DNA of 63,831 bases, counting the filler, from Reclinomonas americana ATCC 50394 (taxonomy: Eukaryota): the NCBI GenBank assembly GCA_048213135.1. It is 11 parts of 4 records of this genome, joined end to end, with 100 filler letters (N's around TTAATTAATTAA, not from the genome) between each part and the next. Parts side by side here need not be neighbours in the genome. Positions count along the whole stretch, not along the records: positions 50,829 to 54,861 come from PS015013.1; 10 more parts are not named here. One strand, given 5' to 3'. The notes beneath the pieces are model-generated. The model was not told the origin of the DNA. It was given only the letters and a program-made list of their open reading frames with translations, and did not search any database. Made by a program: the position numbers and the translations under genes. Positions within the stretch are counted from its first letter, which is position 1; the number at the start of each line of letters is the position of its first letter. Below are positions 52,416 through 54,850 of the stretch, in pieces.

Positions 52416-54850
52416 TCATGGCGACGATGCTTCGTCGTCATCGTCCACGGCGACGGCGTGTGAGGTAATTGTGGTCGCCGTACTCGAGATTACTGCGGTG
52501 GAGGCCGATGCTCCCAGGTCGCGTTCGTATGACATGTCGCCGACGGCACCGACCAGTCCCAGCCGATGCGCGTGCTTGCGGTTGTAGTTCCACTGTACAA
52601 GGAAGCCGATGCCGATCGCCAGTCCCCACTGTAGGATGCATGTGGCGAACGACTCGCGACTGAGTGGGTTCCACCATGGGAACTCCTCCGACAAGCAGGC
52701 CTGCGAACGCGCAAAAATGGTGAGGGATGTGTAACACACCAGTGGGCGACATGCACTGTGTTTACCTGCACGAGAGATGCCAAAAGGAGCACACAGCCCT
52801 CCACCGGCACGACCCAGGTGATGATAATGTCCCACCATCTGCCCACCTGTTCATGCATCATCAGTACAGAGCACGGATGGCAATGCTGAATAAAACAAAA
52901 ACAGCACACACACAGACCTTGTCGTGCTCATTGATATTGATGTAGTTGGTGCGGAAGTTCTTGGCGCCGCCCTTGAGTGCCAACAATGCGCACCCGAGAC
53001 CGCACAGAATGAGACCATTGCCCCACACAAAGTCCTGCACGCGAAGCAATCAGGGCACAACAGCAAGGCAGCAGGCAACAGTCACACCCGTCATCGTACC
53101 TGATTGGAGAGGTACGACACGCTGAGGCTGGGCGGGATGGAGCCGGCCAGGCAGAAGATGAGCATAAAAGTGAGCACACGCGGGCGCGGAATGCCGACCT
53201 CCGTGCCGATCTTGAGCATCAGATTCAACACCGAGATGTACGAGGTGAAGGCGGCGAAGCTGAGACCAAGGAAGAAGATGACGGCCAGCGGGCGTCCAAA
53301 CGTCATCTCCGAGAAGAGCACTGGCAGGAACTGGAAGACCAGACCGGTGCCGGCGACACCACTCTCGCGCATCTGCAACACGAGCTCCTCCTGTGACAAG
53401 AAGGAAAATGAGTCGCTGGAGATCGACAGCTGTGGTGGCGACAAGGATGCGAACCCGAGTGTAGCGATCGCCCAGAATGCCCCACGTGGCACCAAAGATG
53501 GTCATGCCAGCGATCAGAGAGACACAGTTGTTGCCGATGGGTGTGAGCGCGGCCGTTCTGTTTGATACAATCAAGCAAGTCAGCACAGTGCATGCAAGGC
53601 CGCACACATCAACCCAGTCCGCAACTTGGAGATGCCGTTGCGTTCCTATGGGACCGAAGAAACAAAAGTGAGTCACGGATTCTGCAGGAAGAGAATATGT
53701 TGCCACTCACTGTATGCACAATACACAGCGTGTCAGCACAATAAGAAGCGGCGACTCACACAGCATGCACACATTGCTCACCATCAAAGTATGTCGCATA
53801 CGACAACAGAATGCCCTGCCAACAAGAAAAAATGGTGCACGCGTCAGCATCGAGCATGTATCCACTCGTGAAATCTACAACGACTGCGCACCCAGCCTGC
53901 CGACGTGTCAAAGCTGGTCTGTGCCAGCGCTTCCAGATATGCTGTGGGGTTCCACAAGGTGGACGGATCGGGTCCAAACATGTAACCGAGACCGCCGCTC
54001 GCGCCCAGGAACAGACTGCGGATCCAGATGATGCACAAGACCACCAGCAGTGCCGGCACCAGTGTGTAGTTGACCCACTCGATCGAGGCCAGACCGCGCC
54101 AACAGCCGAGGATGGCCAGTGTCACCACAATGGCATTGAACAGGTACGGCCACGGGGTGTTCACAAAGTCGGCGAACTCGCCAGCCGCCTCCGCTGATGA
54201 CGTTGGCAAGTCATTGATGATGTAGTAGAAAAAGTAGCGTACACACCACCCGTTGACCACGGCTGCGTGCAGAGGCGTGTGGTAAGCACTCCACACATTC
54301 CCATCATTTGCACAGCGAATGATGGTGGTGGCGCAACAATAGTAGAGTTCGATCATTACGTTGTTGATGACTAGGAAGACTCCGATCCAGCGGAACTTGT
54401 CGCCCAAGAAGTATGCAAACGTGCGGACCTACGGCAAGAGAAATAAGTGCGCGCTGGGCACATATGGCAAGCGTGATAATGCGTCAAACGCACCAAGCCT
54501 CGTCGTGCCTTGCGGCCTGCGGCGTACTCCAGCAGAATCTACCCATTCACAGAAAAGATCAACAACCACGTACATCACCACCGACGAACCGCGACAAACC
54601 AGTGGAATGGCCCAGATGAACAGGAACGTGAGCCAAATCAGCAGGAAAAACAGCGCTCCTTGCGTTCCACTATTGCGCGCCACAATGCGTGCAAAGCGCC
54701 ACACTGCACCACACACACGTCAGCGGTTCACCCCATGCTCAACACACGAGTGCACATACGCACCATTGCCTGTGCCGACAGCGCATCCCAACAAACTGAA
54801 GAACGTCGTAAACTTGTTGGAGAAGCGCTCCGATTTCGTCTCCTCGCTGT
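52416..54850 (-). CDS. SLC6/NSS sodium-dependent transporter (5' end in gap)
   Basis: LLGCAVGTGN|VWRF, WAIPL|ILLEYAAGR, YY|SVVNGW, EALAQTSFDTSAGW|G, GNNCVSLIAG, GTGLVF, FAAFTS, NQ|DFVWG. Confidence 0.93.

Follow-up and report, generated by a model that had tools for sequence, protein, structure and literature searches.

A candidate spliceosomal twin intron in a transporter gene of Reclinomonas americana

We describe a 137-nt interval (positions 53782-53646, minus strand) in a transporter gene of Reclinomonas americana ATCC 50394. On balance we lean, to a modest degree, towards reading these bases as a spliceosomal twin intron (stwintron), in which two U2-type introns of 72 and 65 nt would overlap by one G. 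The window analysed is a stretch of 63,831 nucleotides, filler included (assembly GCA_048213135.1), and all positions count along it. The interval carries the sequence elements of two introns, both parts have ordinary sizes for this genome, and its product alone fits the transporter family. From these observations we infer splicing in this manner, with splice sites paired across each intron and by one of two routes.

The transporter gene and the 137-nt interval

The interval lies in a gene of the SNF/NSS family (PF00209; 52416-54861, minus strand), delineated by a Pfam match, spliced alignment to five homologues and translation. The gene has at least 12 exons and ends with a stop codon at 52418-52416; its 5' end is lost at an assembly gap at 54862. 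An SLC6-type gene had been proposed in the first-pass annotation, and this was borne out: the PF00209 profile matched a 123-aa exon at 30.3 bits (cut-off, 27), and the spliced translation contains GCAVGTGNVWRF together with further conserved blocks, which aligned along their length with homologues. The homologues were supplied by an exhaustive search yielding 150 representatives, in which the closest relatives of the transporter were sequences from protists or of prokaryote type, not SLC6 proteins of animals. The top SNF match in the protein search had 55% identity. A word-index search of longer proteins with the 123-aa exon as query gave 936 candidates, none of them significant. No protein or transcript of the same species was found among the matches of the SNF and coatomer-beta protein searches. 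In a tree of coatomer-beta, for which the top protein matches had 48-52% identity, the organism fell outside the fungi and near Discoba, grouped with Heterolobosea and a euglenid (SH-aLRT 88), in keeping with the protist-like genome presumed at first.

Two short exons flank the interval. The first, of 33 nt (53783-53815, minus strand; GGC..TAC TTT GAT), encodes GILLSYATYFD, which lines up with the G-L-x-x-Y-A-x-Y block conserved among the homologues. The second, of 20 nt (53626-53645, minus strand; GAA CGC AAC GGC ATC TCC AA), encodes ERNGIS and the first two bases of a K codon. ERNGISK fits the family pattern, as seen in RKNGIVK of P0010 and SRHGVVK of P0009, and five of the seven codons carry G or C at the third position, GC3 for the whole gene being 0.80. 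The 20-nt exon is followed by an ordinary phase 2 intron of 68 nt (53558-53625, minus strand; GTTGCG...CTGAC...AAACAG), whose donor hexamer GTTGCG recurs in three more verified introns (54337, 1883 and 1189). The next exon (53455-53557, minus strand), placed by spliced alignment with homologues, encodes TAALTPIGNNCVSLIAGMTIFGATWGILGDRYTR. It was through this additional 68-nt intron (53625-53558), implied but unlisted in the first-pass annotation, that YFD-ERNGISK could be followed in frame, as claimed, to TAALTPIGNNCVSL.

Re-reading the minus strand of 53646-53782 confirmed every base originally cited. A single G (53782) is followed by a 72-nt 5' unit (53710-53781), which begins with the donor GTGAGC (53781-53776), ends with CATACAG at 53710 and contains a branch-point-like CTGAC (53732-53736) whose A lies 23 nt away from the 3' end of the unit. 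The remaining 64 nt (53646-53709; TGAGTGG...CCCATAG), joined to G53782, would form a 65-nt GTGAGT..TAG intron. Taken together with G53710, they also form a 65-nt 3' unit (53646-53710; GTGAGT...CCCATAG), next to the exonic G53645, in which a branch-point-like CTCAC (53668-53672) is followed by a pyrimidine-rich run and places its A at 23 nt from the TAG. G53710 is common to the two units, giving an overlap of one G with an exonic G on either side. Judged from the sequence, both units appear complete for U2-type introns, each with a GT donor, a branch element and a YAG acceptor, as a stwintron would have. Excision from GT (53781) to AG (53646), by comparison, takes 136 nt and leaves the next exon out of frame.

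An mRNA with the conserved product, joining 53783 to 53645 (equivalently 53782 to 53644), would need two consecutive GT-AG reactions, the splice sites pairing across each short intron (intron definition). Along the [D1,2] route, the 5' unit would be the internal intron and would leave first; G53782, as nt 1 of the external donor, would then meet T53709 to create GTGAGT, and the second step would remove a 65-nt external intron ending with the TAG at 53646. Along the [A2,3] route, G53782 would be the final exonic base and the 3' unit the internal intron; its removal would bring A53711 to G53645, creating the external acceptor ACAG, and the second step would remove a 72-nt external intron from the GT at 53781. 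This second arrangement matches, at the sequence level, the definition given in PMC5587772. The mRNAs from both routes would be identical, and co-transcriptional order would favour removal of the 5' unit before the 3' unit. The ordered [D1,2] splicing first proposed thus survives in part: it belongs to the sole reading found that is all GT-AG, of normal size and of 17-residue spacing (see below), but the label is too narrow, since an [A2,3] reading, in which the 3' unit (53710-53646) leaves before the 5' unit, suits these bases equally well.

Local introns provide the measure for these sizes and motifs. Twenty verified introns, 10 from the transporter gene and 10 from the coatomer-beta gene, span 59-76 nt (median 66.5), so that the interval is indeed twice the usual length and each part normal, as the first-pass annotation had it. 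One further verified intron in the window has ~400 nt; 20 of 21 are therefore of 59-76 nt, and long introns are possible in the window. All 21 are conventional GT-AG introns with branch motifs. Of 18 verified introns, 17 have a YTNAY motif (mostly CTNAY) at a distance of 11-28 nt from the 3' end under the limits of our scan, and the remaining one has a CTGAC farther upstream. Both candidate units are within the local range in size (72 and 65 nt) and in the position of the branch A (23 nt), and given the 59-76 nt of verified short introns any single-intron solution is a size outlier. The rebuilt GTGAGT had been called a perfect donor, which is true against the general eukaryotic consensus but not locally, where GTRAGT occurs in none of 20 donors and an A at +4 in one; GTGCGT is a common local donor. 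A refined ab initio parser (penalty 5) placed 59 of its 128 predicted introns at 60-79 nt, its modal class, a figure to be used as a rough length histogram only because the parser recovers just 9 of 18 known introns. No related copy of the 137 nt was found in the window by blastn (best other match 24 nt, 87.5% identity, E = 0.079), and the RNA fold of the interval is no better than that of shuffles (z = -0.57; 58 of 200 shuffles fold equally well or better).

Homology and the splice models

Spacing between conserved positions was used to compare the possible products. From the 150 representatives, 50 passed a motif and length filter, and six (P0002, P0018, P0040, P0075, P0124 and P0125) were dropped because they were fragmentary or visibly frameshifted past the motif, leaving 44 usable segments. 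Some of the homologues are transcriptome-derived (Stygiella, Anaeramoeba), and the contig of P0001 has 2,180 nt. The distance from the conserved aromatic residue (Tyr) to the NN motif is exactly 17 residues in 42 of the 44 segments and 18 in the other two; an alignment of homologues had been suggested as a check of the spacing, and the predominant value is the one that the two-step product gives. Only removal of 137 nt yields 17 residues that contain ERNGISK (YFD-ERNGISK-TAAL): this spacing was obtained with none of 15 canonical solutions, of one or two GT/GC-AG introns, that keep ERNGISK. In-frame canonical solutions with altered loops do exist, as found by enumerating GT-AG sites.

With a profile HMM built from the 44 segments, the 137-nt model scored highest at 87.0 bits, followed by an AATCC micro-exon model (81.6), introns of 157 + 48 nt (80.1), one intron of 202 nt (79.4) and one of 125 nt (77.7). 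The homology margin over these alternatives, 5-9 bits, is not decisive. In pairwise scoring the 137-nt model was best for 36 of the 44 homologues, and no other model for more than 2.5. Codon usage was also compared: the log-odds of model-specific codons are +0.5 bits for ERNGISK and -1.7 to -12.5 bits for the alternatives. Two further models were tried and rejected, one with a 136-nt intron and the next intron read through (model B, +26 aa; 71.9 bits), the other with introns of 136 and 48 nt (model D, +7 aa; 72.8 bits).

Chance occurrence and alternative explanations

The bare pattern is not rare. A compatible internal site turns up in ~6% of randomised 136-nt introns, a share that falls to 1.6% if the rebuilt donor is required to have G at +5. 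A scan for such patterns, which the first-pass annotation had recommended for the genome, was run on the window and did not favour the proposal: 7 compatible patterns were found versus 19 controls (internal acceptor without a following T), a ratio that base composition would predict and that shows no enrichment. No second supported case emerged among the 7 instances in the window, the other six being without homology support and having flanks of weak or one-sided coding potential. What makes the present instance special is its homology-defined reading frame on both sides, not the pattern itself. A crude parser based on codon usage alone and allowing compound introns did not pick the candidate; its picks were no real instance and one control.

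Two alternatives to a stwintron survive best, and we regard each as unlikely. In the first, an assembly or sequencing error has doubled a single G at 53781-53782, and the intron is a plain GT-AG intron of 135 nt in phase 0, from which the same best-scoring protein results. The contig that carries the locus has 2,567 nt (52295-54861), and the 64-kb window has 34 runs of N, 10 of which are N44-linker-N44 joins; in a draft with so many gaps, and on so short a contig, an overcall of one base is conceivable, and the ~400-nt intron shows that long introns occur. However, 135 nt is outside the 59-76 nt span of 20 of the 21 verified introns, and only ~2-4 of the 128 introns predicted by the ab initio parser, itself crude, are of 120-140 nt. 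An erroneous G would also leave the internal branch motif and CAG to chance (~6%), as a harmful decoy acceptor. Moreover, GG is no long homopolymer, and no frameshift or indel was seen in ~4.1 kb of homology-checked coding sequence from the transporter and coatomer-beta genes.

Splicing might instead be purely canonical, with a loop that differs in this lineage, which seems to us just as improbable as a sequencing error. The likeliest form is a 125-nt intron from GTGCAT at 53770 to the TAG at 53646, by which GEQC is inserted ahead of ERNGISK. Its existence restricts the first-pass statement that a single excision breaks the frame, which holds for the donor at 53781 but not for this one, where the same TAG gives an in-frame product with four more residues. 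Other forms are an intron of 202 nt (53759-53558), with the 20-nt exon left out of the mRNA, and a pair of 157 and 48 nt that leads to VADWVDV. All three are in frame and use GT-AG sites; GTGCAT resembles the common donor GTGCGT, the 157 + 48 model likewise has 17 residues, and a canonical-only spliced aligner picked the 202-nt intron with five of five homologues. Yet a loop longer by four residues occurs in none of the 44 homologues, the HMM scores are 7-9 bits below that of the 137-nt model, and the canonical models are jointly best for ~5 of 44 homologues. Codons specific to these models score between -2.9 and -6.7 bits, and 1/4 to 3/7 of them end in G or C in a gene with a GC3 of 0.80, and introns of 125, 202, 157 or 48 nt are absent among the 20 short verified ones.

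Removal of the 137 nt in one step through non-canonical ends (GG..AG or GT..GG) would give the correct product, but we hold it to be very improbable. Nonconventional introns are of a kind found in euglenids, and such an intron was considered in view of the position of the organism near Discoba in the coatomer tree, where its group includes Heterolobosea and a euglenid. The minimum-free-energy fold pairs both ends weakly; against this, that fold does not surpass its shuffles, and every one of the 21 verified introns is conventional. There is a similarly slight chance that the extra G is a real mutation, so that the strain has a broken gene copy or a frameshifted or insertion-bearing product, because all other exons of the transporter are open, its remaining 10 introns are in phase and its codon bias is intact. 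Least credible of all is the AATCC micro-exon (53681-53677) which, although canonical, in frame (D-E-S-E-R-N) and second in HMM score, is best for only 2 of 44 homologues, gives a 19-residue spacing seen in none of them, and needs, beside a 100-nt intron, one of 31 nt (the shortest verified intron has 59 nt) with a branch-like motif in or beside the donor.

Known multi-step introns and implications

No protist stwintron was found in the literature searched, where papers using the term are fungal or cite fungal work, in agreement with the initial remark that stwintrons are described mainly from filamentous fungi. The nearest likeness is an alternatively spliced [D1,2]/[A2,3] stwintron in a DHA1-antiporter gene of Trichoderma reesei, with a similar one in the alternative oxidase gene of Helminthosporium solani (PMC5587772, PMC5639578). 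As in our candidate, U2-type units overlap by one G between flanking exonic Gs, either unit can be internal with the same mRNA as outcome, and the units are small (66 and 88 nt in the fungal case, 72 and 65 nt here). Those stwintrons, however, belong to Pezizomycotina and were proven by cloned intermediates, whereas the present one is predicted, in a non-fungal, Discoba-like organism whose donors follow a much looser consensus than the GTRAGT-like one of fungi.

The [D1,2] stwintrons of Hypoxylaceae and Xylariaceae (PMC9024468, PMC8469720, PMC12403724) likewise have an external donor split between nt 1 and 2, and mis-splicing at distal sites that takes both units at once is possible for them as well. 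Many of them are sequence-similar 'sister' copies with near-terminal stems, unlike the candidate, which has no copy in the window and no significant fold. Recursive, nested and intra-splicing in animals (PMC4829307, PMC4482092, bioRxiv 10.1101/159350) share multi-step removal with a rebuilt splice site, but concern introns that measure from kilobases up to hundreds of kilobases; such splicing is usually optional and relies on AG|GT ratchet sites. Our candidate totals 137 nt, and both steps would be obligatory for the correct frame. The U2/U12 twintrons of insects and vertebrates (PMC3564746) also place two introns at one position; there, two types of spliceosome compete for one site, instead of two U2 reactions taking place in sequence.

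We give even chances to the broader proposal, drawn from genomic sequence, that a deep-branching, non-fungal, Discoba-like protist relies on obligatory two-step nested splicing in the one-G-overlap [D1,2]/[A2,3] form. A canonical-only spliced aligner dropped the 20-nt exon with all five homologues; since gene finders and aligners limited to canonical introns would mis-model this gene, such sites may be a systematic source of annotation errors in short-intron genomes. If confirmed, the candidate would extend nested U2 splicing beyond the fungi and provide direct evidence that splice sites pair by intron definition in this lineage. It would also add an independent second example of the arrangement through which introns have been proposed to shift by a single nucleotide. 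Stwintrons, together with the pairing by intron definition on which they depend, would then be general to eukaryotes with short introns rather than a peculiarity of ascomycetes.

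Gene context and layout of the interval

The window is eukaryotic nuclear DNA and carries genes for coatomer beta, Noc2, a protein kinase, Kelch, 3-beta-HSD and JAMP, among others. The sequence is a draft with gaps, its 34 N runs being those in 10 identical N44-TTAATTAATTAA-N44 joins (3657-3756, 17541-17640, 42368-42467, 45015-45114, 48158-48257, 50729-50828, 54862-54961, 57352-57451, 60583-60682 and 62543-62642) and 14 other N runs; the linker TTAATTAATTAA has stops in all six frames. The window is a chain of short contigs, which calls for caution on gene order across joins and on local base accuracy. 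The contig with the candidate locus is 2,567 nt long; the locus lies in a minus-strand gene of the sodium:neurotransmitter symporter family (SNF/NSS, PF00209; score of the 123-aa exon 30.3 bits, cut-off 27). This gene extends from the assembly gap at 54862, its 5' end being lost in an N44-TTAATTAATTAA-N44 join, as far as its stop codon at 52418-52416.

All bases on which the first-pass annotation relied were found on the minus strand. A 33-nt exon (53815-53783, GILLSYATYFD, ending in TAC TTT GAT) is followed by a single G (53782), a 72-nt 5' unit (53781-53710, GTGAGC...CTGAC...CATACAG), the stretch TGAGTGG...CTCAC...pyrimidine run...CCCATAG (53709-53646), a 20-nt exon (53645-53626, GAA CGC AAC GGC ATC TCC AA), an ordinary 68-nt intron (53625-53558, GTTGCG..CTGAC..CAG) and, directly after it, an exon encoding TAALTPIGNNCVSL. 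The 33- and 20-nt exons are consecutive and very small, with flanking introns of ~70 nt; the 20-nt exon was missed by a canonical-only spliced aligner with all five homologues. A further (third) GTGAGT lies within the 5' unit at 53754-53759 and, paired with the acceptor at 53558, yields an in-frame, 202-nt exon-skipping solution that may be used alternatively or by mis-splicing.

Expected mRNA and splicing routes

An exhaustive homologue search returned 154 relatives, several from transcriptomes, the best being 55% identical. Filtering the 150 listed representatives by motif and length kept 50, and removal of six fragmentary or frameshifted sequences left 44 segments. The distance from a conserved aromatic residue to an NN motif was 17 residues in 42 of these and 18 in two. 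The reading YFD/ERNGISK/TAALTPIG has 17 residues and matches the family pattern (compare RKNGIVK in homologue P0010 and SRHGVVK in P0009). When scored with a profile made from these 44 segments, this reading, with 137 nt removed, reached 87.0 bits, followed by models with an AATCC micro-exon (81.6), 157+48 nt introns (80.1), a 202-nt intron (79.4), a 125-nt intron with a GEQC insertion (77.7), 116+68 nt (75.4), 136+48 nt (72.8), read-through of the next intron (71.9) and a 220-nt GC-donor intron (71.1). Scored pairwise, it ranked top for 36 of the 44 homologues. Coding sequence is strongly biased (GC3 about 0.80 over 1,869 training codons), and the codon-usage log-odds were +0.5 bits for the 137-nt-removal model, whose 7 codons lie within that training set, versus -1.7 to -12.5 bits for the others.

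Full enumeration of GT/GC-AG solutions across the whole interval, with zero to two introns, gave 125 that are in frame. Fifteen one- or two-intron solutions retain ERNGISK and none of these has the 17-residue spacing, so none of the canonical solutions enumerated reaches the mRNA that the family favours; that mRNA corresponds to the loss of exactly 137 nt, 53782-53646 or equivalently 53781-53645. The first-pass annotation had proposed a [D1,2] spliceosomal twin intron (stwintron), an internal intron lying between nucleotides 1 and 2 of an external donor. By this route, 53781-53710 would leave first, joining G53782 to TGAGT, and the rebuilt 65-nt GT..AG intron ending at 53646 would follow. This reading stands as the best-supported explanation, since its product fits the family best, but it was drawn too narrowly, missing a mirror [A2,3] route, in which the interruption falls between nucleotides 2 and 3 of the acceptor. 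Here 53710-53646 (GTGAGT..TAG, 65 nt) would be removed first, joining A53711 to G53645 and creating an acceptor for the 72-nt intron starting at 53781. The two units share one G, and an exonic G lies on either side. Judged from sequence, the interval is on balance probably a [D1,2]/[A2,3] alternative stwintron; the argument combines a reading frame that homology sets on each side, an invariant loop length, two units of normal size that each have a branch motif, and the lack of a canonical route.

Local introns, chance and alternative explanations

Introns were verified with a purpose-written spliced aligner. In the SNF gene, eight introns were identical with five of five homologues and two more with three of five; in the coatomer-beta gene, eight were recovered with at least six of eight. 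Adding two coatomer introns resolved from reading frames and the 68-nt intron at 53625-53558, the 20 short introns span 59-76 nt (median 66.5). The sole verified intron outside this range, the ~400-nt first intron of coatomer beta (3000-3405, minus strand), has many microsatellites of the (GA)n and (TG)n types. Donor sequences vary widely (G at +5 in 12/20, A at +4 in 1/20, GTRAGT in 0/20; overall a very weak GTNNGY), with GTTGCG in four of the 20 (54337, 53625, 1883 and 1189, minus strand). Unlike this weak consensus, a CTNAY branch motif is nearly universal: within the limits of the scan, 17 of 18 introns had YTNAY, mostly CTNAY, at 11-28 nt from their 3' end. Both candidate units carry GTGAG, which is atypical locally given the single A at +4.

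A compatible internal site arose in 6.0% of 20,000 Markov-generated 136-nt intervals and 6.1% of 5,000 dinucleotide-shuffled ones, and in 1.6% when the rebuilt donor also had to have G at +5. Across the window the pattern occurred seven times, versus 19 for control patterns whose internal acceptor is followed by a base other than T, as expected from base composition; on its own, the compound pattern is weak evidence. Homology supported only one of the seven, the candidate at 53782-53646. Two other compound patterns (G/GT...YAG/T), at 41318-41426 (minus) and 23962-24101 (plus), resemble coding sequence to some extent on one flank (log-odds of the down-flank 7.7 and 9.5 bits, respectively) and lack homology support. 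No sister copy of the candidate was found within the window, and the RNA fold of the interval was not significant.

If one G was overcalled, the interval would be an ordinary intron of 135 nt and the protein would not change. Draft quality keeps this explanation alive; however, 135 nt is outside the length range of 20 of the 21 verified introns, a 6% coincidence and a harmful decoy acceptor inside the intron would be needed, and the ~4.1 kb of coding sequence checked held no indels, making it rather unlikely. About equally unlikely, taken jointly, are canonical solutions with an altered loop (the 125-nt intron with GEQC, the 202-nt exon skip or 157+48 nt), which are all in frame but score 7-9 bits below the 137-nt-removal model, use poor codons and require intron sizes absent from the verified set. 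One-step non-canonical excision of the 137 nt, as a GG..AG or GT..GG intron, is improbable, and a genuinely broken gene copy equally so. The AATCC micro-exon, requiring a 31-nt intron and a 19-residue spacing, is the least credible.

Source lineage and known stwintrons

A tree of 28 coatomer-beta sequences united the window, the euglenid Ploeotia and Heterolobosea sp. BB2 (SH-aLRT 88). This group is nested in a clade of 13 rows, supported at 99, from which the fungi (six sequences, support 100), animals and Amoebozoa are excluded. From this placement and a top identity of ~50% to any coatomer beta, the source organism is a non-fungal, probably Discoba-related protist. The nearest named relatives of the SNF transporter are Stygiella (a jakobid) and Anaeramoeba. 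For both genes checked the closest relatives are only about 50% identical, and the lineage appears poorly sampled.

The literature compared includes PMC5587772, PMC12403724, PMC5639578 and PMC9860276. Of the papers searched that use the term stwintron, seven are primary studies, all of them on Ascomycota, and the others mention or cite it. Wider searches of the same literature turned up no protist stwintron; what they gave was recursive or nested splicing in animals, and twintrons of organellar or U2/U12 type. Like the candidate, the Trichoderma reesei DHA1 antiporter gene shows a one-G overlap of its units and flanking exonic Gs; that stwintron was demonstrated by cloned intermediates, and its configuration was suggested as an intermediate stage when an intron shifts by one nucleotide (PMC5587772). 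If real, the element described here would be a stwintron, an already known kind, in a new and distant lineage.
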